Source: Crocosphaera subtropica ATCC 51142 (GTDB lineage: Bacteria > Cyanobacteriota > Cyanobacteriia > Cyanobacteriales > Microcystaceae). Taken from it: a stretch of 32,000 bases of DNA. The position numbers and the translations under genes are program-made. The notes beneath the pieces are model-generated. The model saw only the letters and a program-made list of their open reading frames with translations. It was not told the origin of the DNA and searched no databases. Every line of letters begins with the position of its first letter. Within the stretch, counting starts at the first letter, position 1. The stretch lies in contig NC_010546.1 of assembly GCF_000017845.1 (NCBI RefSeq), positions 2,700,001 through 2,732,000 on the forward strand, read 5' to 3'. Shown piece by piece: positions 5,468 through 31,026 of the stretch.

Positions 5468-6235
5468 ATGAAAAAAATAAGTTATTTATCTTTTCTTTTT
5501 TTAGTCCCTTTTGCTGTTACTTTGACCAGTTGTAGCACTCCCTCAGAAAATAAAGATACTACTCAAACTTCTGCCCCAGAAGTTGTTGAAACAAAAACAG
5601 AAGAGGGAGACACAGACTATTTAACCAGTTTAGGGTTAATGAAAGGTCATTTGATGGTAGCTAAAGACTTAATGGAACAAGGAAAATATGAAGAAGCAGA
5701 ACCCCATGTTGGCCATCCTGTTGAAGAGTTATATGGCACTATTGAACCTGAACTCAGTAAACGCAATGTTACTGATTTTAAAATGACCTTAAATCAGTTT
5801 CATGATGGTATTAAAACCAATCCTAAATCCGAAAAAATGAAGGAATTATATGAAAATTCCATGACAGCGATAGATCAGGCGATCGCAGCCGTTCCCACAG
5901 AAAAATTACAATCTCCTGAAACGGTTTTGCCTGTGATTAACGGACTTTTAGCTACCGCAAATGCAGAATATCAAGCAGCGATCGCCAACAACAAATTTGT
6001 AGAATTAATCGAATATCAAGATTCCATGGGATTTGTTGCTTATGCAGAGGAAATCTATCAACCCATTGCTGACACCATGAGTCAACAATATCCCGAAAAA
6101 CACGAAGTGATCACCACAAGTTTAGCAGAATTAAAAACAGCTTGGCCCTCGGTTAATGCACCAGAAACTCCAGTGATGTCCCCTGAAAAAGTCAATGAAT
6201 TAGTGACAAAAATCCAAGAAAGTAGTACACTATAA
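5468..6235 (+). CDS. lipoprotein of unknown function (all-helical; HxxE-containing)
   Basis: AAGGAG Shine-Dalgarno 6 nt upstream. Signal plus lipobox MKKISYLSFLFLVPFAVTLTSC. The mature part is Glu/Lys-rich and helical, with HVGHPVEE. Confidence 0.7.
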   Translation: MKKISYLSFLFLVPFAVTLTSCSTPSENKDTTQTSAPEVVETKTEEGDTDYLTSLGLMKGHLMVAKDLMEQGKYEEAEPHVGHPVEELYGTIEPELSKRNVTDFKMTLNQFHDGIKTNPKSEKMKELYENSMTAIDQAIAAVPTEKLQSPETVLPVINGLLATANAEYQAAIANNKFVELIEYQDSMGFVAYAEEIYQPIADTMSQQYPEKHEVITTSLAELKTAWPSVNAPETPVMSPEKVNELVTKIQESSTL

Positions 6236-6276
6236 TCGAATTTAGGATGATCTGTTGCCCTAACCTAAAGTAGATT

Positions 6277-6316
6277 GATACAGGCTTATTATTGAGCAAT
6301 AAGCTGTATCAGTTTT
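6277..6316 (+). terminator. hairpin plus T-run between convergent genes
   Basis: GATACAGGCTTATT-attgagc-AATAAGCTGTATC (13 bp stem, one bulged G) followed by AGTTTT. It sits between the lipoprotein stop (6235) and the stop of the minus-strand gene (6325). Confidence 0.45.
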
Positions 6317-6324
6317 CCCCAACA

Positions 6325-6699
6325 TTAATGGTTCATACAACTACCATCTTCTTTATGGGGAGTCGGTTCTAATGTTACGATATTACCTTTCATTACTCCC
6401 TGAATCGCTGTTAAGGGATCGGTTTCTGAAGTAATATAAACTGTAATGCCACGACGACTTAAACGCTCTTTTAAGCCAACTCCGGCTTCTCCTGTAATTA
6501 AGATACTCTGATCTAAAGGATGAGGAGTGATATCATCATCGTGAAGATCGTGGAATGTGGGTTGAGTTTCAGGAACTTCTAACTTTTCGAGTAAAGTTGG
6601 TTCAACCTCTTGAGTCGCTTCATAAACTAAGAACTTACGAGCGCGACCGGTTTTCCCTGTAATGGTCTGAAAATCATCACTCACAAGGGCAAACTTCAT
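6325..6699 (-). CDS. NifX/NifB-type dinitrogenase FeMo-cofactor biosynthesis domain protein
   Basis: MKFALVSDDFQTITGKTGRARKFLVYE resembles the N-terminal signature of the NifX-NifB family (MKIA..S.D......HFG.A..F.IYE). Confidence 0.6.
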   Translation of the reverse strand: MKFALVSDDFQTITGKTGRARKFLVYEATQEVEPTLLEKLEVPETQPTFHDLHDDDITPHPLDQSILITGEAGVGLKERLSRRGITVYITSETDPLTAIQGVMKGNIVTLEPTPHKEDGSCMNH

Positions 6700-6838
6700 G
6701 GCTAATTTACCTATTTTTTAGTCTATTTTTAGTTTAGAAATATTAGCACGGGATAATTTATAAACTGTTAAAAATAAGAAAAAATTAACGGGGAAGCCTC
6801 TCGACCTCCCCGTTTAATGCTTATGATTCAATACTTGT

Positions 6839-7129
6839 TTATCCTAAGCCAAGTTCTTCTGCTAAACGTAACGACATTGAGTCGGCTCGGTCAATTTGTT
6901 TTTGCTGACGACGCAAGATTAACCAGCGTGACTTCTCTTTAATAGCATCGTCTGAAGTTGGGTTATTGTCGTATTTTACACCCCGCCAAGTCAAGTTAGC
7001 ATTGGGTTGAAGCGTAACTGAATTATGGTGATTACGAAACCGCCAATCATGCTCTTGGCTTGAAGTAGAAGCGAGTTCTACTGTAGGGGGATTATAATCA
7101 TAGCTAACACCACGATAAGTAAGTTGCAT
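6839..7129 (-). CDS. DUF4278-family cyanobacterial protein
   Basis: MQLTYRGVSYDYNPP... and an internal second LTWRGVKYD repeat are the hallmark of DUF4278. Confidence 0.7.
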   Translation of the reverse strand: MQLTYRGVSYDYNPPTVELASTSSQEHDWRFRNHHNSVTLQPNANLTWRGVKYDNNPTSDDAIKEKSRWLILRRQQKQIDRADSMSLRLAEELGLG

Positions 7130-7434
7130 CCTCGTTGCCTCCGAATAGTTGTCATGGTTGTGATCGGTAGGCGCGTTCCTTCAGGAAAAATCCTTACTTC
7201 CGTCCCTCCATTGTTGATGAATGTCTGCTGGAAAGGATGAACGATTTATTTCTTTTCTGTATCTATTGTTACAGATTTTTTTGAGAATGTCAAGTAATGA
7301 GACTTCATATGAGTATAAGCAATCTTGATAGTCAAATGACAAAGCCCTTGATTGTCAAGCTTTCATCATAAAAGTTTATGTAGTCTTAATATTTTGTTAC
7401 ATTATAGAGGTAGTAACTTCACACACAAGTCTTT

Positions 7435-7776
7435 ATGTTTACTATTCCAGCACCCTTCAAAAATAGATCAGAAGTTTCTGACCTCAAAGAACGCCTTGAC
7501 TGGGGCGAACCCGCCTTAACCATCATTGACGTTAGAGATCGAGAAGCTTTTAATCAGAGTCATATTACTGGCGCTGTTTCTCTTCCTATGGATGAATTAG
7601 TCAATAGAGCCTTAAATAACTTTGAACTGATTCGTGACATTTACATTTACGGCGCAACAGAAAAGGAAACAGCCTTAGGGGTTACCAAACTTCGCCTTGC
7701 TGGATATAAAAAGGTCGCTGAATTAGTTGGCGGTTTAAATGCTTGGAAAGCTTCTGGTTATCCCGTTGAAGGATAA
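7435..7776 (+). CDS. single-domain rhodanese-homology protein lacking the catalytic cysteine
   Basis: LTIIDVRDREAFNQSHITGAVSLP ... IYIYGATEKETA ... GGLNAWKASGYPVE has the rhodanese fold pattern. The whole 113-aa protein contains no Cys. Confidence 0.8.
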   Translation: MFTIPAPFKNRSEVSDLKERLDWGEPALTIIDVRDREAFNQSHITGAVSLPMDELVNRALNNFELIRDIYIYGATEKETALGVTKLRLAGYKKVAELVGGLNAWKASGYPVEG

Positions 7777-7802
7777 TTAACTAACTTTTAGATAAAGAAT
7801 GA

Positions 7803-7835
7803 CTACCTCAGATAATCCGTCTGGGGTAGGTTTTT
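7803..7835 (+). terminator. rho-independent terminator after the rhodanese gene
   Basis: Stem CTACCTCAGA / TCTGGGGTAG (10 bp including one G-U), 7-nt loop, then G plus TTTTT. Confidence 0.55.
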
Positions 7836-7853
7836 GTTGCGGGAACTAATTTT

Positions 7854-7884
7854 CTGAGGGGTGCGTAGAATTTGCCCAGCTATA
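7854..7884 (+). repeat. left copy of 31-bp imperfect direct repeat (pseudo 3' end of larB)
   Basis: CTGAGGGGTGCGTAGAATTTGCCCAGCTATA versus 10957..10987 CTGAGCGGTGCGTAAAATTTGCCCTGCTAAA: 27 of 31 identical by hand alignment. On the minus strand it reads IAGQILRTPQ, compared with ILAGQILRTAQ at the real larB C-terminus. Confidence 0.55.
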
Positions 7885-7894
7885 CCGCTATGCG

Positions 7895-7919
7895 AAAGGC
7901 AAAAGGCAAAAGGCAAAAG
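7895..7919. repeat. heptamer tandem repeat (AAAAGGC x3 plus partials), STRR-like
   Basis: gAAAGGC AAAAGGC AAAAGGC AAAAG, read directly; immediately inside the left islet boundary. Confidence 0.6.
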
Positions 7920-8011
7920 TAGGCCAGAAAAGAGTTTCAGGGGTTGTGAATGTCCTAACAAAAATGCGTAGTGCTATAAAATCATTGTTTTCAAGTAGGT
8001 TAGCCAATGTT

Positions 8012-8037
8012 CACCCTACACTTTTGTGTTTAGGGTG
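8012..8037 (-). terminator. possible terminator hairpin downstream of the 891-aa gene
   Basis: CACCCTA(A)ACAC-aaaa-GTGTAGGGTG on the minus strand, 45 nt after the stop at 8082. There is no clear U-tract. Confidence 0.3.
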
Positions 8038-8081
8038 GTAAGGTTCACTCTATCTTAAATTTGATTGAGTTAAATAATATC

Positions 8082-10757
8082 TTATAAAGTTTGTCTCGTT
8101 TTAATTTGTTTTATAATGGTGTTTGTGCATGGTCTAAGGGCAGCCTTCTCATTATCTAAGGCCACAACAGGATTATAAGAACTAGTGTATCCTGCCAGTA
8201 AATCTGATGGCAAAGTCACTCTAATGTTTTGACCATTTTTATCAGTTAAAACCTCACTTGTCTTAGGATCGATCAGATATTGAGGCATTATAATAAATAC
8301 TCCTTTTCGTGTTTTTTTCCCCATAAACAGTCCTAGTTCAAAAATGACATTATCTCTGGCTACTTTTTCCTCTCGGCCTCTTGAGAGCCTATCATCATCA
8401 GGAGCTAAAATAAATATCCCAAAATCATATTTATTGACAACATCTTCTAAAGATTCTAGGGGTGTTTGCAGTCCAAATGCCCCAAAACTATCACTATCTT
8501 TCCATAATACAGGATGAATATTTGGGTCTTCAGCTAAAAGTTGAACAACAGTATTAGCAATATTTAGATACTCTGAAGACGAACCAATAAAAACTTTAGG
8601 GGGTATTTGTGACATTGTTTTTCGTGCTGATGATTTTGTTCCCTTTCCCAATGATATATCAAGGTGGAGGAATTTCGCAAGCTGATTCAATTGTAAATCC
8701 TCTTGAATAATTATGTGTTCTAAATTCTTGCCAATTTGTATTACAGCATCGGAATGCACTTGTATTAAACTTTCTTTAATTAATACTAAGGCTTCACTTT
8801 CTTCCTTTTTTGTAAGTCTATATGATTTATAAGAAATCTCTGATATTTTAGGATCTTTTTTGCCCTTTGGTAATTGCTTCCAAAAATGTATAGCATAATC
8901 CTTTGCTTTTTCTAGCAACTCATTTTTTGTACTACCTATACTTTTATTATTACTATGTTTGAGTATCTCCCTAAAAGGTATAAATAAACCACTGAAAGAA
9001 GTTTTAGTTCTTGTGATTTTTTCCTTTTCATCTAACAATTCATTAAAAACTTGGTCAGACATAGCAATAGCATTTAGCCAAGCGTCTAAAGCATAATTAC
9101 CCATAAGACCTTCCACAGTTCCCCACTCAGAGTAAAATCCACCATCTAATTTAGGAAGTTTAACTGAATGCTCACGAAATAAGTCTTGAGCATTTTTAGG
9201 TTTATTTTTATATTCCTTCGCATTCAATCGATATAATAGGCCTAATGTAGTAACATTCGTTGCATTATAGTCTTTCTTAACGACAGCTTTTGCTAGATCA
9301 ATTGCTAAGTTTTTAAATTCTCTTCTTTTCTGTGATGTTAAATTTTTCTCTTCGTCTACTTTATAAAAAAAATATTTGGACAAAGTATTCCATTCTGTGA
9401 GTTTTTGAGGCTCACTATCTTTAAAAACGTCAAAAGTATTTTCGAGTAATTCTGAATAAAGATCAAGAATGAAAATACGGAATATATTTCTATGTTCTTC
9501 CAATATTTCTAAAGAGATTTTTGCAATTAGAGGATGACGAGTTAAAACAGAACTCCCTGCATAAGAACTAGATAGCAATGGAATTTCTTGTCCTAAGTAT
9601 TCCAAAATGTCTATCTGAAGCTCTCTAATTTTACAATTAAATATTTTGGCTAAAGTCCCTTGATAAAGAATGTCTTTTTCCTCTGCATGAATAGCAGCAA
9701 TATAGGCAAAAACTTCGAGCAATTTTCTTGGATGTTCTTTATCATTAATTATGATAGGAGTCTTATAAAGTTTTGAACATAAGTCATATAGTCGATTTTT
9801 TAATTCTTGAGTCCCGTAAAGAACTGCAAGAACTCCTCCAAATAAAGTTCTATCTTCCATTGATTCAGATACTTTTCCTTGTTCACGATTAGCCGCATTT
9901 AAAAATTTTTCTGCTAGATGATTAATGGTTTCCTTACTAATATTATCATTACTTTCTATTCCTTGTATTTCTAGTCCTTTGGGAAGATACTCTATCCAGT
10001 TTTCTACGATTTTTATCGCATCATAATTAGATAAACCCTCAATTCGATAAGGATGAGCAAAATATCCTGGATATTGTGACCAATACTGACGTTGGGCTAA
10101 TTTAAAGTCTATAGTGCGACAACAGAATAAGAAACGAAAACATACATTTTTATCTTTTTTTTCTAGCTCTAGGTAATCAATAACTTTTACAATTTCTTCA
10201 AAAATTTGTTCTGCATGATCGGAAACAATAATCACATTCTTTTTCCCTCTATTATCGTGATTTTTATCTTTATCTTCAATGATATAATCTACTAATTTAA
10301 TTAAAGATTTAGAAGTTGATGGAGGTGTAGCAATATTGGATTCTTGTCGCCAATAACCTCTCCAATCTCTGTCACCAGACCTTTTGCGAAGTAAAAGCTC
10401 AACAGATTGCATCAACACTGTTGTTTTTCCCTCTCCTGTTGCCCCTGTAATCCATTTAACATTTACTCTCTCTCTGCTTTCAGATTCTATAATGTCATTA
10501 ACAATGTTCTCAACAATTTCTCTTGATGGAATACGTAGAGAAGTGATTTCCAACCAATCGGGTTTATACCCTTGAAAATAACTAATAATCCTGTCATCTA
10601 AATATTTTTTGTAATCTTCTTCAAATTCTTTATAATCTTTTTTATAATCCTTTTTATAATCTTTTTTGTCATCTAGTAGGACGTTCTTTAAACTTTGATA
10701 TGTTATTTTAGTCCAGTCTTGTGACCAGTTTAGGTTTTCTCCTACATTATTCTCCAT
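8082..10757 (-). CDS. 891-aa P-loop NTPase (STAND-like) with C-terminal TIR-like domain (PF10137 / CAP12-Pycsar-effector type); candidate anti-phage protein
   Basis: Walker A GATGEGKT is at aa 105-112 (nt 10422..10445, verified by back-translation). Walker-B-like NVIIVSD ends at D180. The region aa ~230-710 is helical. In aa ~721-865, KVFIGSSSEY...YDFGIFILAPDD...ARDNVIFELGLFMGKKTRKGVFII...LPSDLAG-like closely follows the pattern of the 'nucleotide-binding protein containing TIR-like domain' family. E807 (nt 8337..8339) sits in the FELG motif. Confidence 0.8.
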   Translation of the reverse strand: MENNVGENLNWSQDWTKITYQSLKNVLLDDKKDYKKDYKKDYKEFEEDYKKYLDDRIISYFQGYKPDWLEITSLRIPSREIVENIVNDIIESESRERVNVKWITGATGEGKTTVLMQSVELLLRKRSGDRDWRGYWRQESNIATPPSTSKSLIKLVDYIIEDKDKNHDNRGKKNVIIVSDHAEQIFEEIVKVIDYLELEKKDKNVCFRFLFCCRTIDFKLAQRQYWSQYPGYFAHPYRIEGLSNYDAIKIVENWIEYLPKGLEIQGIESNDNISKETINHLAEKFLNAANREQGKVSESMEDRTLFGGVLAVLYGTQELKNRLYDLCSKLYKTPIIINDKEHPRKLLEVFAYIAAIHAEEKDILYQGTLAKIFNCKIRELQIDILEYLGQEIPLLSSSYAGSSVLTRHPLIAKISLEILEEHRNIFRIFILDLYSELLENTFDVFKDSEPQKLTEWNTLSKYFFYKVDEEKNLTSQKRREFKNLAIDLAKAVVKKDYNATNVTTLGLLYRLNAKEYKNKPKNAQDLFREHSVKLPKLDGGFYSEWGTVEGLMGNYALDAWLNAIAMSDQVFNELLDEKEKITRTKTSFSGLFIPFREILKHSNNKSIGSTKNELLEKAKDYAIHFWKQLPKGKKDPKISEISYKSYRLTKKEESEALVLIKESLIQVHSDAVIQIGKNLEHIIIQEDLQLNQLAKFLHLDISLGKGTKSSARKTMSQIPPKVFIGSSSEYLNIANTVVQLLAEDPNIHPVLWKDSDSFGAFGLQTPLESLEDVVNKYDFGIFILAPDDDRLSRGREEKVARDNVIFELGLFMGKKTRKGVFIIMPQYLIDPKTSEVLTDKNGQNIRVTLPSDLLAGYTSSYNPVVALDNEKAALRPCTNTIIKQIKTRQTL

Positions 10758-10941
10758 TCTAATAGATTTAGATATTATGGTTTATAAAAATTAATACCTA
10801 ACACTTTTCAGTTTCGGTTACTAAAGTATAGTTTATCACATAGAGTACAATGGCTAGTTTAGTAGGTTGGATAGAAAAACGAAACCCAAAAATACAGAGA
10901 ACTAGCCTCAAAATTGTCCTTGAATACAGTAGGTTATTGAA

Positions 10942-11712
10942 TTAAGAATTTAGTCGCTGAGCGGTGCGTAAAATTTGCCCTGCTAAAATAGCTGCTCCAA
11001 AACCATTATCAATATTAACCACACCAATTCCCGTTGCACAGGAATTTAACATCGTTAATAAAGGGGCAACTCCTCCGAAGCTGGTTCCATAACCTACACT
11101 GGTAGGGACACCAATGACTGGACAATCCACCATACCAGCTACCACACTGGGTAAGGCTCCTTCCATACCAGCTACCACAATAATTACATCTGCTTGACTC
11201 AATAAATTTCGATGACTCAACAAGCGATGAATACCAGCAACCCCCACATCCCAAAGGCGTTGAGTTTCAAAGCCACAGAATTGAGCCGTCACCGCTGCTT
11301 CCTCAGCCACCGGTAAATCCGCCGTACCTGCCGTTAGGATCGAAATGACTCCTGACCCCTGAGAAGGCAGTTTGCCAGTTTGTAGGACGCAAATACGGGC
11401 AGTGGGATAGTAAATGAGAGATGGGATCTCCCCTTCGAGTTGTTCTGCGATCGCTTTTTCAATACGAGTAGCCATGACCACAGGAGAGTGGCGAGCCATA
11501 GTCGTCATAATTTGTATAATTTGTTCTGGGGTTTTCCCTGGTCCCCAAATGACTTCAGGAAACCCTGTTCTCAGATGACGATGGTGATCAACTTTAGCAA
11601 AGTCTGCCACCGGTTCAAAGTTGAAATGTTTCAGCTTTTCGAGGGCAAGATCGGGGCTGATTTCGCCTGTGGCGATAGCATTTAAAAGTTCTTGCAGCGC
11701 GTCAGGGTTCAT
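10942..11712 (-). CDS. larB: LarB / CpmA family (PurE-like) nickel-pincer cofactor biosynthesis protein
   Basis: The N-terminal helical part (DLALEKLKHFNFE..DFAKVDHHRHLRTGFPEVIWGPGKT) is followed by a PurE-like half (VISILTAGTADLPVAEEA...IIVVAGMEGALPSVVAGM...VIGVPTSVGYG). Confidence 0.8.
   Translation of the reverse strand: MNPDALQELLNAIATGEISPDLALEKLKHFNFEPVADFAKVDHHRHLRTGFPEVIWGPGKTPEQIIQIMTTMARHSPVVMATRIEKAIAEQLEGEIPSLIYYPTARICVLQTGKLPSQGSGVISILTAGTADLPVAEEAAVTAQFCGFETQRLWDVGVAGIHRLLSHRNLLSQADVIIVVAGMEGALPSVVAGMVDCPVIGVPTSVGYGTSFGGVAPLLTMLNSCATGIGVVNIDNGFGAAILAGQILRTAQRLNS
10957..10987 (+). repeat. right copy of 31-bp imperfect direct repeat (inside the last 15 codons of larB)
   Basis: See the left copy at 7854..7884: 27 of 31 identity, same orientation, same reading frame relative to the encoded peptide. 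Confidence 0.55.
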
Positions 11713-11928
11713 TCAATATCCATGTCCATTATCCATTCTCTATTATCGCTCATTGTTTGTTGATTCACTTCAGTTGATACAGATAGCTCTATCCAAGACA
11801 GTGTAAACTTAGAAAATAGGGCTTTTAGTTAGTAATGACTTTGAGCTAGACAAACTTGGTTAAATGGAAATCCCACGCACTGAATTGCTGTGGGACTGTT
11901 AATGTGATGCTAACTTTGAGGATAGGTC

Positions 11929-12330
11929 ATGGAATTAGAATTTCCTGAAGATTTAAGATATTTAGATAGTCATGAGTACATTCGATTAGATGGAGAAATT
12001 GCAACCATTGGCATTAGTGCTTATGCTATCGAGCAGTTAGGGGATCTTGTCTTTCTAGAATTGCCCGAAGTAGGAGACTCCCTAGAAAGAGGAAGCAGCT
12101 TTGGTTCGATTGAGTCAGTGAAAGCAGCAGAAGACCTTTATCCCCCCGTCTCAGGAACGGTCATTGATCGGAACGAAGCGATGATCGAAACCCCAGAGGT
12201 CATTGCTGATGATCCCTATGGGGACGGATGGCTGCTCAAAGTTCGGGTTGAAAACCCAGATGATGAATTAGAAGACACCCTATCGGCTCACGACTATCGT
12301 GCCATGCTTGAAGGGGAAGAGGGCATCTAA
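11929..12330 (+). CDS. gcvH: glycine cleavage system protein H
   Basis: [41 protein letters not shown] and the lipoyl-lysine motif [10 protein letters not shown]. Confidence 0.9.
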
Positions 12331-15144: not shown

Positions 15145-17325
15145 TTAAATATTAATGCTTTGAGGAATATTGGTCGGGAGTAAACATTCGTAAGGAAATA
15201 AACGCTCACTACTTTGATTGCGTTGATGAATAATCGTATGAGCTTGGTTAAGTTTTCGATGAAAGGTGTCTAAGGCAGTTTGAAGGGGTTGAGAATTAGA
15301 AAAAGCTGAAGAAGAATAATGTCCTAACTGGGTATAGTAAACTGAGCCTAATAAATAGAGAATATTAATTTGACTTTGGGCTTGAGATAAAGAGGGTAAA
15401 CCATCAAGAAAACTTTGGGTTTCCTTAACATGGGTAGGAGGAGGTGAATAACGGGCTAGAGGGAATCCCGGTACATACGTCATTAAGGTTTTTTGAGGAA
15501 AGTTAACCGCAGCGTGTTGTGCGCTAGCAGTAAAAATGAGGGTGGAGAGGACTTGACTTAAATAATCTTTGGTGTTGATATGACCAAGAGAATCTTCACC
15601 AAAATTAGATAATCTTCCCCCATTAATCGAAGCTAAGGTGGTTGCCCAATGTTGTAAGGCTTGATCAGAGGCAACGGCAGCATCATGAGTGTAGTAAATA
15701 GAAACATAATCCTTGACCCAGGTATGAATAGCATCCCAAATTAACTGGCCATCATCTCGGTAGGGATAGATAGGTAAAGTATGGGGGTTATCAACCCTAC
15801 GATTCACTAAATTTTGCGGAAAATTAATGGCGTTGAAATTGAAGAGGTAACTCTGAGTACCTTGACTGCTCAAGGATTGATCACTTCCAATACTAGAAGC
15901 TAACAGTGAATCAACGGTTCCTCCTGGAGCCACTAAAAAAGCATGGGCCCCGTAATTAATGACCACAGTTCCTTCTAAATGGGGAATCAACAAATTCCTG
16001 AGAGGATGCTCCTCTGGTAAGTTATATGTAGGAACAGCAAAAGCTTCAACCACTAAATGGGTTCGACCCAAATGGGAAATCAATTCATGATAATTACAAT
16101 CTGCCATCTGTACAATATTTTTGGCACTCATCCAAGGTTCCCCTTGGCTATCAGTATCTAAGGGAGTAAAAGTTGTCCATTGCTCACTCATCGCTGTCTT
16201 TCGATAAGTAATGGCCACTGGAAATAAACAACGGGTCGCATTGGCTTCTGGAGGAACGGCAAAAAAAGCGATGGGAGCGCAAATATACTTCTGTTGAACT
16301 AGCTCTTGATTAATGTAATTCCCGTTCACCAAGCTGTTCAAGATTCCATAATCAGAAACATACAGTCTTTGAGACTCTATCACCTCAGCTAGAGAATCAA
16401 CAACTCCAAATTTAGCAGCGATCGCACTGTACTGATCTGGAGATACTGGACAAGACCCATGTTGTTGGTCAAACCCTTGCAGTACCAAAGGGTTAGCTCC
16501 AGCCACTTGTAAATAAGCAAAAATGCGATCGTCTCTAAAAACATCAGCAATGAGAGGCTTTTCAATGATTTGATACAAGCGATTGTAGTCATCAAGGGTC
16601 AAAGACTCAGGGGACTGAGCTAACTCAGGTTGGGGAACATCAGCGATTTCTGCCATTTTTGTGGCATATTTGAGAATATTTTGTAGACTCACAATGATAG
16701 AAGTCTCGGTTGATCTTTGACGAAATAGTTTCGCTATTTTTTCATCAAAGTCAAGCAATTGATTGCTTAGAAGTTCTATTAACCCTCTTTTTTCATGAAT
16801 TGAGTTAAATGGCTGATAGTTTTCTTCCAGTTGAGAGTCTAAGTTAAATTTTTGGTCAAGTTGTCTCAAATTGATTTCTAAGGTTTTAACACAAGCTTCA
16901 AGCTTATTCTGGTTTTCTGACTCTTCAAAATCGGCTTCAATTGAATCTAAATTATTACTAATCTCAGAGAAATTTTGTTTAAATATTGAGACTGACTCCT
17001 CATTTTTCTCAAGATAGTCATTAATGATAGTAATCAGAACCCTATAAATAACTTTAACAACCCAAATTAGATTGGGAAATGAACCTTTAGGGAAGTTAGG
17101 GAGAGGAATCCCTAATATTTTTTCTATCACTTCACTTTCAGGAACGTTAGTAATAGATAAAGGCGGAAGATAACTATAGTTATATTTATAACTGTCGTTA
17201 GAAAAATAACGCTGTTGGATATATAAACCTAATAAAATTATTGCTAATTTTAGGGGAGATAAGGATTTTTTCCTATCGGATAAGATCCCTAAAGCTTGTT
17301 TATTTTCATCTTGATTCATCGTCAT
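15145..17325 (-). CDS. iron lipoxygenase with a non-PLAT helical N-terminal extension
   Basis: Iron-ligand motifs: HELISHLGRTHLV (H413 at nt 16087..16089, H418 at nt 16072..16074; verified), HAAVNFPQ, and the C-terminal IPQSINI ending in Ile. These correspond to soybean-type HQLMSHWLNTH / HAAVNFGQ / PNSISI. Confidence 0.9.
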   Translation of the reverse strand: MTMNQDENKQALGILSDRKKSLSPLKLAIILLGLYIQQRYFSNDSYKYNYSYLPPLSITNVPESEVIEKILGIPLPNFPKGSFPNLIWVVKVIYRVLITIINDYLEKNEESVSIFKQNFSEISNNLDSIEADFEESENQNKLEACVKTLEINLRQLDQKFNLDSQLEENYQPFNSIHEKRGLIELLSNQLLDFDEKIAKLFRQRSTETSIIVSLQNILKYATKMAEIADVPQPELAQSPESLTLDDYNRLYQIIEKPLIADVFRDDRIFAYLQVAGANPLVLQGFDQQHGSCPVSPDQYSAIAAKFGVVDSLAEVIESQRLYVSDYGILNSLVNGNYINQELVQQKYICAPIAFFAVPPEANATRCLFPVAITYRKTAMSEQWTTFTPLDTDSQGEPWMSAKNIVQMADCNYHELISHLGRTHLVVEAFAVPTYNLPEEHPLRNLLIPHLEGTVVINYGAHAFLVAPGGTVDSLLASSIGSDQSLSSQGTQSYLFNFNAINFPQNLVNRRVDNPHTLPIYPYRDDGQLIWDAIHTWVKDYVSIYYTHDAAVASDQALQHWATTLASINGGRLSNFGEDSLGHINTKDYLSQVLSTLIFTASAQHAAVNFPQKTLMTYVPGFPLARYSPPPTHVKETQSFLDGLPSLSQAQSQINILYLLGSVYYTQLGHYSSSAFSNSQPLQTALDTFHRKLNQAHTIIHQRNQSSERLFPYECLLPTNIPQSINI

Positions 17326-26020: not shown

Positions 26021-26049
26021 CTCTCCCTGCTCCCATTCTCCCTGCTCCC
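26021..26049. repeat. C/T-rich direct repeat (CTCCCTGCTCCC x2)
   Basis: CTCTCCCTGCTCCC ATTCTCCCTGCTCCC, in the glgC-downstream / transketolase-upstream spacer. A related CCCCTGCCTCCTCTGCTCC lies near 14110. Confidence 0.5.
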
Positions 26050-26090
26050 TTGCAGCCTTTAGCAACAAGTTTTCGATCTACTGAAGCTAA

Positions 26091-30961: not shown

Positions 30962-30986
30962 GGAGTCAGGAGTCAGGAGTCAGCAG
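30962..30986. repeat. heptamer tandem repeat (GGAGTCA x3 plus partial), STRR-like
   Basis: GGAGTCA GGAGTCA GGAGTCA GCAG, read directly in the intergenic spacer. Confidence 0.6.
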
Positions 30987-31026
30987 TTGAATTTTAGGTG
31001 TACCTTATGAGTTCGGGAAACGCTAT

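Follow-up and report, generated by a model that had tools for sequence, protein, structure and literature searches.

How can a single gene of foreign composition come to lie between a biosynthetic gene and that gene's own 3′ end? The question is raised by a locus on the chromosome of Crocosphaera subtropica ATCC 51142 (NC_010546.1, positions 2,700,001 to 2,732,000; this whole stretch of 32,000 nt is called the window below, and positions refer to it). Here larB, a gene of nickel-pincer cofactor biosynthesis (10942..11712, minus strand), is separated from a second copy of its own end, which adjoins a convergent gene for a rhodanese-domain protein (7435..7776, plus strand), and the interval holds a gene for an 891-aa protein with STAND-type NTPase and TIR domains (8082..10757, minus strand). 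An earlier interpretation made from the letters alone, the sequence-only reading, had taken the locus as the footprint of an element that integrated into the 3′ end of larB and supplied a replacement end. Insertion into the end of larB with a replacement end did occur, a conclusion in which we have very high confidence. A foreign, AT-rich segment of 2,946 nt (7983-10928) entered the last ~20 codons of larB in this lineage; the incoming DNA brought its own larB-type end of ~61 nt, and larB now ends in this copy (copy A), with 256 instead of 268 aa. The native end (copy B) now lies 3 kb off and remains joined to the hairpin at the end of the rhodanese gene. The insertion and the substitute end of the sequence-only reading therefore stand, while 'by an element' is one of two routes, neither of them proved.

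The 3′ end of larB is present twice

The two 31-mers from which the sequence-only reading had started, at 7854-7884 (CTGAGGGGTGCGTAGAATTTGCCCAGCTATA) and 10957-10987 (CTGAGCGGTGCGTAAAATTTGCCCTGCTAAA), are exactly as it described them, with 27 of 31 positions identical and both in the same orientation. Nor are they a dispersed repeat, as it had also held: the window contains no other copy at up to three mismatches, and none arose in 100 shuffles. Thirty-one nucleotides are not the full extent of the duplication, however. Repeat finding lengthens the pair to 57 nt ungapped at 74% identity (7826-7882 and 10929-10985), and when a miniature inverted-repeat transposable element (MITE) is taken out of the left copy together with one copy of its TA duplication, this copy gains a further 4 nt (7979-7982), giving a duplication of 61 nt with 46 identical positions (75%; 7826-7882 plus 7979-7982 versus 10929-10989). 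Elsewhere in the window the 61-mer matches at no more than 30/61 positions, and 50 shuffled sequences gave at most 34/61. Perfectly matching blocks between the copies measure 8, 9, 8, 5 and 7 nt, long enough to hold an overlap region of 6-8 nt, yet there is no long identical core.

The right copy, copy A (10929..10989, minus strand), now closes larB, whose reading frame runs seamlessly into it and ends in …ILAGQILRTAQRLNS with a stop codon at 10942-10944. That this copy encodes the end of larB, as had been claimed, is borne out by the 256-aa open reading frame (ORF), which passes the LarB equivalog model NF033503 of NCBIfam (296.8 bits, cutoff 175) and carries the Pfam AIRC domain. The gene has a GC content of 47% and is intact, yet its product is 12 residues below the 268-aa form of relatives. 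Homology of copy A to the ancestral tail continues for 13 nt beyond the stop codon and ends at AACCTAC (window position 10929), beyond which the sequences are unrelated.

The left copy, copy B (7803..7882, minus strand, resuming at 7979-7982 past the MITE), is the stranded ancestral 3′ end of larB (…AGQILRTPQKISSRNKNLPQTDYLR); by alignment of both copies, its segment 7826-7882 plus 7979-7982 is the part duplicated in copy A. Read on the minus strand it gives IAGQILRTPQKISSRNKNLPQTDYLR and, just as the sequence-only reading had it, stays open to a stop codon at 7803-7805 inside the hairpin of the rhodanese gene. This hairpin (7803..7829), which is followed by a T-run, was found in a terminator scan (downstream sequence, GTTTTTGTTG) and is presumed to be a bidirectional terminator. 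Its sequence is kept in eight relatives with no compensatory changes among them, so its structure is not proven; presumably it was ancestrally the common terminator of the rhodanese gene and larB.

Relatives carry the empty site

In a large protein collection, relatives of the LarB protein are 88-93% identical to it (closest, 93%) and named Crocosphaera sp. Their C-termini fall into classes, and several are 268 aa long and end in …AGQILRTAQRISSRNKNLPQIDYPG / …QRISSRNKNLPQIDYPG or …QKISSRNNNLPQTNYLE. This 268-aa ending is the sequence encoded by the fragment on the left side of the interval, copy B. Using the protein search and contigs encoding identical proteins, we located larB loci in which larB is directly convergent on the rhodanese gene with 27-165 nt between the stop codons. 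They lie on the contigs L088 (GCA_051439645.1), L092/L093 (Crocosphaera sp. Alani8), L094, L095-L097, L098 and L099. The rhodanese gene of the window (113 aa; Pfam PF00581, E 8.7e-17) thus has orthologues adjoining larB in relatives, and these are 113 aa long as well, except in L095-L097 (119 aa). L088 also shares the next genes along with the window, namely those for a DUF4278 protein, a 124-aa protein, an OprB porin and a solute-binding protein. In nucleotide alignments, the left copy is collinear with the larB tail, stop codon, hairpin and rhodanese 3′ end of the relatives; the true larB tail, stop codon and intergenic region of L088, L092, L094 and L098 all align with copy B. Most larB genes at empty sites carry the long tail (…QRISSRNKNLPQIDYPG, then the stop codon). 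The ancestral arrangement that the sequence-only reading had predicted, rhodanese gene and larB convergent on one shared hairpin, thus exists in at least six related contigs, with copy B orthologous to the tail, stop and hairpin found there.

Two broader scans were less productive. A scan of GTDB at one genome per species with LarB gave a best match of 76% identity, lacking synteny, and is uninformative on the empty site. A metagenome scan for larB-end variants yielded three further contigs, one with an empty site, one with a rhodanese gene disrupted by an insertion sequence (IS) and one with a larB truncation; a second island was present in none of the three.

The left copy is native and the right copy foreign

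Which of the two copies came with the insert can be judged from their differences, counted by eye on nucleotide alignments. The conserved part of ~30 nt (…LAGQILRTAQ) has 3 differences between A and B, and the 28-nt tail has ~11-12. Two species of the clade show the same pattern, for example L088 and L092 (3 and 9 differences, respectively); the right copy is therefore foreign DNA from the same genus-level clade. The tail of copy B is 86% identical to L088 and L094, and the whole copy is 82-86% identical to relatives, compared with 80-82% for the native rhodanese region beside it. A tail as similar to the relatives as the adjoining rhodanese region, and with the ancestral stop codon kept, indicates that copy B has its native tail. 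By contrast, the 28-nt tail of copy A is only 64-79% identical to relatives (closest to L092) and contains a premature TAA; it came in with the foreign DNA, from a donor or a previous host in the same genus-level clade. Copy B has one private non-synonymous change, Ala to Pro, at a position where close relatives have Ala and most other cyanobacterial LarB ends seen have a small residue (Ala, Gly or Ser), which fits a dead fragment.

Two simple interpretations of the repeat were tried and rejected on these grounds. A target-site duplication is ruled out because the tails of A and B differ at ~40% of their positions with B still 86% identical to relatives, and AACCTAC is ruled out as a crossover core because the tail of copy B is native-like and that of copy A is not.

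Comparison of larB over its length placed all relatives at 80-84% nucleotide identity in a star-like pattern, that is, at genus-level distance. The affinities of larB to different relatives shift along the gene, and a search for mosaic structure or a donor tract found no step near its 3′ end, where the gene comes closest to L088 and L094. Gene order around larB varies strongly from one relative to the next.

The larB tail elsewhere in the clade

The convergent pair of larB and rhodanese gene is kept in six relatives though the outer genes on both sides differ in almost all of them. A functional link between the two genes is conceivable, for example the provision of sulfur for synthesis of the nickel-pincer cofactor.

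Other lineages show changes of their own in the larB tail. In L089 (10769-10943, the same as L090 8715-8889) and in L098 (2864-2999), insertions of ~110-165 nt lie in the same few nucleotides of the tail and shorten LarB to 257 and 264 aa, respectively; the old end of the tail (…CCCAGAC…GGGTAG) is still discernible downstream of them. The two insertions are 73% alike over 82 nt and probably represent a second, small repeat family. On the metagenome contig L101 (1-1200), just the last ~23 codons of larB and its tail remain beside the rhodanese gene, and the upstream neighbour of this remnant is an unrelated gene, a putative type-2 isopentenyl diphosphate isomerase judging by its N-terminal sequence alone. 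It seems that most of larB was deleted here and the hairpin-bearing end retained. With the defence islet in C. subtropica, small insertions in two other lineages and a truncation in a fourth, the dispensable C-terminal tail of larB, which overlaps the shared hairpin, may be a recurrent landing or breakage site in this clade.

Extent and composition of the insert

The left end of the insert is the 3′ flank of the defence gene (99 nt, 7983..8081, minus strand), with a hairpin at 8012-8037 and the 9-mer AGTAGGTTA at 7994-8002; the right end is its 5′ flank (171 nt, 10758..10928, minus strand), presumably the promoter region. Neither flank is similar to any relative, save for ~12 nt of the left flank beside the MITE that fall within a match to contig L102.

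Composition was computed on 7885-10928, which takes in most of the MITE. The GC content of this segment is 32.1%, compared with 40.5% for the rest of the window, and the 3,044-nt window with the lowest GC content of all 32 kb begins at 7901. Windows of this length outside the islet have a mean of 0.407 (standard deviation 0.022, minimum 0.361). The tetranucleotide distance is likewise the highest in the window (0.366); elsewhere it does not exceed 0.285, with the highly expressed phycocyanin operon as the runner-up. These figures put numbers to the AT-rich, deviant composition that the sequence-only reading had pointed out. GC content at third codon positions (GC3) in the 891-aa gene is 0.21, compared with a mean of 0.33. 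The HIP1 octamer (GCGATCGC) occurs 16 times in the window between 5879 and 31146 (0.12 expected by chance), and its longest gap (5985-11447) contains the islet; that the islet, where ~1.5 would be expected, has none of the 16 copies is weak evidence of its deviant composition.

The only ORF of at least 60 aa with family support in the islet is the 891-aa gene. The claim that the interval held this gene only is correct as far as genes go and overlooked the 94-nt MITE. The interval between the repeats is also not insert throughout, as had been assumed: its first 94 nt beside the left copy are a MITE of a resident type, and 7983-10928 is foreign. The sequence-only reading was right that no integrase or transposase is present, and this extends to all 32 kb. 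A search of 7300-12000 against Rfam, with E values up to 1, returned nothing.

The structure is unlikely to reflect a peculiarity of one assembly. Several independently assembled contigs from the runs SRR26036484-89 cover it, one contig of 10.9 kb as a whole and shorter ones with one junction each. Proteins identical to LarB, the rhodanese, GcvH and the DUF4278 protein were found in SRR26036484-89 alone, and the islet is present in all of these runs, with no strain-level polymorphism.

A MITE in copy B

The 94-nt element (7883..7976) lies within copy B between TA duplications at 7881-7882 and 7977-7978. It has an imperfect terminal inverted repeat of 11 nt (8 of 11 matching) and an internal tandem repeat, (AAAGGCA)x3.6. 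Copies are present at other sites in L094 (1770-1864, 86% identity) and L102 (5601-5693, 83%), and the site orthologous to that of the L094 copy is cleanly empty in L101. We therefore class the element as a resident-type MITE and not as DNA of the foreign insert. The family is likely tied to an IS630-type DDE_3 transposase (IS630/Tc1-mariner-like): in L102 (1-208), the C-terminus of such a transposase (Pfam DDE_3) abuts a TA within the rhodanese gene, which it interrupts, and the contig ends inside the IS. Because a MITE present before the islet would have destroyed larB, it either came later or arrived on the incoming arm.

A STAND NTPase with a C-terminal TIR domain

The sole gene of the insert encodes a protein supported by Pfam (PF25199, PF10137) and by PADLOC, whose TIR effector and PycTIR models both match it. 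An nSTAND5 P-loop NTPase domain spans residues 59-224 (PF25199, E 1.3e-30; Walker A motif GATGEGKT) and is followed by a helical region, which homologues of the family match to about residue 605. A TIR domain of the Cap12/PycTIR type lies at the C-terminus (residues 721-824; PF10137, E 2.7e-23). It matches the PDB chains 8jsj (PycTIR) and 9lmq/7un8 (Cap12) at ~1e-11, with the RDNVxFE(L/F/I)G motif aligned; the segment reads RDNVIFELG in the 891-aa protein and corresponds to the catalytic-motif region of the solved PycTIR and Cap12 structures.

The best protein matches among 1.84 billion representatives are 30-35% identical and cover residues 45-605 only, and none of the best 150 has both the NTPase and the TIR module in one protein. 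The domain order is also unusual. Of ten nSTAND5 relatives examined, nine place an N-terminal region ahead of the NTPase module, and in seven of the ten this region carries a recognisable effector-type domain (Metallophos, a calcineurin-like phosphoesterase; DUF4062; or TIR_2). In the 891-aa protein, the place of the effector domain that most of these relatives have at the N-terminus is taken by ~58 aa of KDYKK-rich low-complexity sequence; the effector order usual in the family does not hold, its own effector being C-terminal. Tandem repeats of 12 nt and 21 nt at 10601-10667 encode this low-complexity KKDYKKDYKKDYK N-terminus.

Neither a cyclase nor a cNMP-binding (cyclic nucleotide monophosphate-binding) or STING domain was found in the protein with Pfam and NCBIfam (bit scores of 61-62 against a cutoff of 450). 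With no cyclase, no cyclic-nucleotide sensor and no other gene in the islet, the 891-aa gene is not a Pycsar or CBASS system. By analogy with its domain families, the protein might sense an invader through its helical region, oligomerise through the NTPase and destroy NAD+ through the TIR domain, leading to abortive infection. This STAND NTPase, unusual in its domain order and without a close relative among ~1.8 billion representatives, is a candidate anti-cyanophage system. On the minus strand, the terminator scan detected nothing terminator-like in the stretch from larB to the 891-aa gene. Since the gene also lies between larB and the old larB terminator, read-through from larB is plausible besides an own promoter, and such transcription of the defence gene could end at the old hairpin.

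How the insert may have entered

In several respects the insert resembles an integrative island: repeats duplicating the 3′ end of the target gene stand at both of its ends, the target gene is kept intact by the substitute end, and relatives have the empty site. That the larB frame runs seamlessly into copy A argues for a join by recombination within homology and not for random insertion, and a native tail on B together with a foreign tail on A places the crossover upstream of the tail. Our tentative preference, which falls a little short of calling it probable, is a site-specific route. A compact circular cassette without an integrase, made up of the gene-end mimic, 171 nt, the gene and 99 nt, would have entered the chromosome in a site-specific or Campbell-type manner, by a crossover in the short stretch of larB homology that precedes the variable tail. 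The catalyst would have been a site-specific recombinase that acted in trans or has since been lost, as with a cis-mobilisable element (CIME). The circular form can be reconstructed as …CTTGAAAACAATG, one 61-nt larB-like segment and TGTATTCAAGG…, and the restored empty site leads from larB into …AACCTACCCCAGACGGATTATCTGAGGTAG.

The site-specific route is slightly favoured by the tight bounds around one gene, by inverted termini and by a repeated 8-mer. The termini at 7986-7995 and 10919-10928 (TGTATTCAAG / TGTTTTCAAG; as searchable ends, TGTATTCAAG / CTTGAAAACA) form an inverted repeat with 9 of 10 positions matching, for which p is ~0.002 if the comparison is confined to the extreme ends. The 8-mer AGTAGGTT occurs three times in 32 kb, each time in the non-coding arms of the islet (7994-8001, 10861-10868 and 10928-10935), the last copy spanning the right junction. 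In the reconstructed circle, AACCTACT is evenly spaced, at about −73, 0 and +67 nt. A search of IMG/VR for this spaced pattern gave 89 matches, apparently tandem-repeat arrays and many of them on giant-virus contigs, and was uninformative. The arm of the ancestral hairpin at 7825-7832 reads GGTAGGTT, and in relatives AATAACCTAC and GTAGGTTAT are the outer hairpin arms. In addition, a stretch of the defence-gene 3′ flank at ~8003-8061 shows weak similarity to the larB end, from ATTT(T/A)AG to TAACCTAC (p 0.003-0.35, with the start chosen post hoc); on this borderline similarity, it could be a decayed third copy of the larB end from an earlier event.

A number of observations weigh against a site-specific cassette. 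The end motifs were spotted post hoc, and as a free local alignment the inverted termini are not significant (p 0.27). No integrase lies inside the insert beside the putative attachment (att) site, and neither the islet nor the 32-kb window contains an integrase, excisionase, transposase or tRNA; no recombinase is encoded by any of the 31 ORFs of the window. The longest identical block between the copies is 9 nt at 75% overall identity, with no long core such as a recent site-specific integration often leaves, and the native-like tail of copy B (86% to L088 and L094) means that the repeated AACCTAC was not the crossover point. The event has no observed recurrence at the same site, either in 80 larB loci or by the junction in IMG/VR. 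The 80 other loci showed no further larB end downstream of the gene, and about a dozen close relatives none flanking an island, so there is no sign of a family of larB-targeting elements. Searches for a second cassette were equally fruitless. A word-indexed protein search with the cargo gene gave a single match at 29% identity, the cargo protein and a 23-mer across the junction found nothing in IMG/VR, plasmids gave nothing by DNA and TIR-domain matches only by protein, and the larB end had a chance match only in a phage collection. Finally, a homology-anchored alternative predicts the same gross structure. Taken as a whole, the account that joins the insertion, the integrase-less cassette, the trans-acting or lost site-specific recombinase and the consequences drawn from them is likewise held provisionally, as something just under probable.

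A bolder version of the site-specific route would make the islet one member of a cyanobacterial class of single-gene defence cassettes that have no recombinase and home to a gene end by a mimic of ~60 nt. The short inverted termini and three copies of AACCTACT would then bracket the mimic, and the recombinase would be encoded elsewhere and act in trans. We consider this improbable. If true, the class would be, in function, the chromosomal counterpart of integron cassettes or CIMEs, with immune genes as cargo.

The alternative that survives best is homology-facilitated illegitimate recombination, or similar homology-anchored recombination, with linear chromosomal DNA taken up from a related cyanobacterium that already had the STAND-TIR gene just behind larB. 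We judge it possible, if on the doubtful side. One end would have recombined homologously within larB and the other been joined illegitimately at 7982/7983, 61 nt upstream of the end of the donor/recipient homology; copy A and some upstream larB sequence would be donor DNA, all of copy B would be native, and no recombinase would be required. The missing integrase is then no problem, and the tail of copy A, plainly a larB tail of the same clade, makes the donor a relative. The whole of copy B is native-like (82-86% to relatives), as this route has it. The shifting affinities of larB suggest frequent recombination in the clade, the fluid synteny makes a donor with a different downstream neighbour plausible, and the larB tail is disrupted in L089/L090, L098 and L101 as well. 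Orphaned 3′ ends at type VI secretion system (T6SS) and Rhs loci have been explained by this model as well, as a proposal (PMC5361080). Against it, the 3′ part of larB shows no step in identity or affinity that would mark a donor tract and is the region most like L088/L094. An anchor at ~80-84% identity would also be inefficient, in a process reported to be orders of magnitude rarer than ordinary homologous recombination (PMC5361080). The route further requires an earlier, unexplained insertion in the donor at AACCTAC, and it predicts neither the tight cassette, which ends 99 nt past the stop codon, nor the inverted termini and the repeated 8-mer.

Transposition is very unlikely. The gene would have been cargo of a non-autonomous transposon moved in trans, by way of its own inverted termini or by the local IS630-type/MITE system. 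The 9/10 inverted repeat at the insert termini would suit this, as would an active, TA-duplicating MITE family and an IS630-type (DDE_3) transposase in the clade, with one MITE abutting the insert. Yet transposition yields short identical target duplications and not a 61-nt repeat that has diverged by 25%, and it would not be expected to restore the larB frame seamlessly by a foreign gene end. Where the insert faces larB it has neither a MITE nor an IS end, and no target duplication stands beside the inverted termini.

More improbable still is an ancestral islet that was precisely deleted in the relatives by recombination between the larB-end copies. A direct repeat of 61 nt could in principle mediate such a deletion, and with all relatives at genus-level distance (80-84% nucleotide identity) the polarity rests on parsimony. 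This explanation would, however, require at least six independent precise losses, each leaving a B-type tail. The strongly deviant composition has not been ameliorated, copy B is still open to the ancestral stop codon and 86% identical to relatives, and the homologues of the gene from protein searches do not exceed 35% identity. The view that nothing was inserted, and that the repeat is due to chance or to faulty assembly, could appeal to the modest 75% identity only and can be dismissed given 46/61 matches against a shuffle maximum of 34/61, the independent orthology of copy B to real larB tails and the several independently assembled contigs (SRR26036484-89) that cover the structure.

Other features of the window

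The rest of the 32 kb consists of ordinary chromosomal genes, among them the cpc operon, glgC, msrA and gcvH. At 15145-17325, a gene for a 726-aa protein of the lipoxygenase family (Pfam PF00305) lies beside a 459-aa ORF that matches no family, in surroundings otherwise made up of housekeeping genes. Short tandem repeats of heptamers are present at 11717-11747 (TATCCAT), 26023-26050 (CTCCCTG) and 30962-30987 (GGAGTCA), in or near intergenic regions, and recall the STRR-like (short tandemly repeated repetitive) sequences of cyanobacteria.

Comparison with known systems

Integrative elements that enter a protein gene at its 3′ end and bring a substitute for that end are exemplified by e14 and phage 21 at icd in E. 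coli. The islet is like them in that its target is kept by a diverged, incoming 3′ end, a fragment of the original end persists on the opposite side and the site is empty in relatives. Unlike the islet, which has one cargo gene, no recombinase and identity blocks of up to 9 nt, those elements are much larger and have their own integrase. CIMEs, att-flanked islands without recombination genes, offer a second comparison; in Streptococcus thermophilus, for example, ICESt1-related elements of this kind occupy the 3′ end of fda. There, too, cargo that includes no genes for recombination or transfer lies between direct repeats of a housekeeping gene's 3′ end, and mobility would depend on an enzyme acting in trans. 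CIMEs differ in having a known cognate element and an exact att core, whereas the repeat of the islet is 75% identical and no second example was found. The term CIME is used in reviews such as PMC5704250.

Closer in host range are the tycheposons, elements in the islands of Prochlorococcus with tRNA or tmRNA targets, tyrosine recombinases and replication modules, which also occur as integrase-less remnants (10.1101/2020.12.28.424599). Like the islet, they are site-specific cyanobacterial elements with cargo or defence genes and partial target copies on both sides, and they decay to remnants without integrase; the islet differs in its protein-gene target, its host from a different cyanobacterial order and its lack of hallmark genes. 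Integrative elements, cyanobacterial ones included, as a rule have attachment sites of ~40 nt and leave a partial copy of the gene on either side (10.1101/2020.12.28.424599). The homology-anchored route has its own counterpart in the orphaned 3′ regions of T6SS effector and Rhs loci, for which homology-facilitated illegitimate recombination was proposed (PMC5361080). In those loci, as here, new DNA is anchored in a conserved upstream gene and the old 3′ part persists downstream as an orphan, but the variable end is itself the selected cargo (toxin and immunity gene), whereas the larB end is incidental and the cargo an unrelated defence gene.

The cargo can be compared in the same way. With nSTAND5 NLR-like NTPases it shares a homologous NTPase and helical module, and it differs from them by an effector that is C-terminal and of a different TIR family. 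Its TIR domain aligns with the solved structures of Cap12/PycTIR effectors, RDNVxFE(L/F/I)G motif included, yet the protein has no cyclic-nucleotide sensor domain and the gene no adjacent gene for a cyclase or CD-NTase. The cargo is an NLR-like STAND/TIR protein: its superfamily is known, its domain order is unusual and it lacks close relatives. The islet, having no integrase, is not a self-mobile integrative element. The kind of event is familiar, element-like DNA in the 3′ end of a protein gene supplying a substitute end, and it is well documented here: the gene rides on a short mimic of the end of a housekeeping gene, so that the host gene is undamaged. The locus provides a clean case, backed by comparative genomics, of a lone immune gene entering a cyanobacterial chromosome without mobile-element genes nearby.

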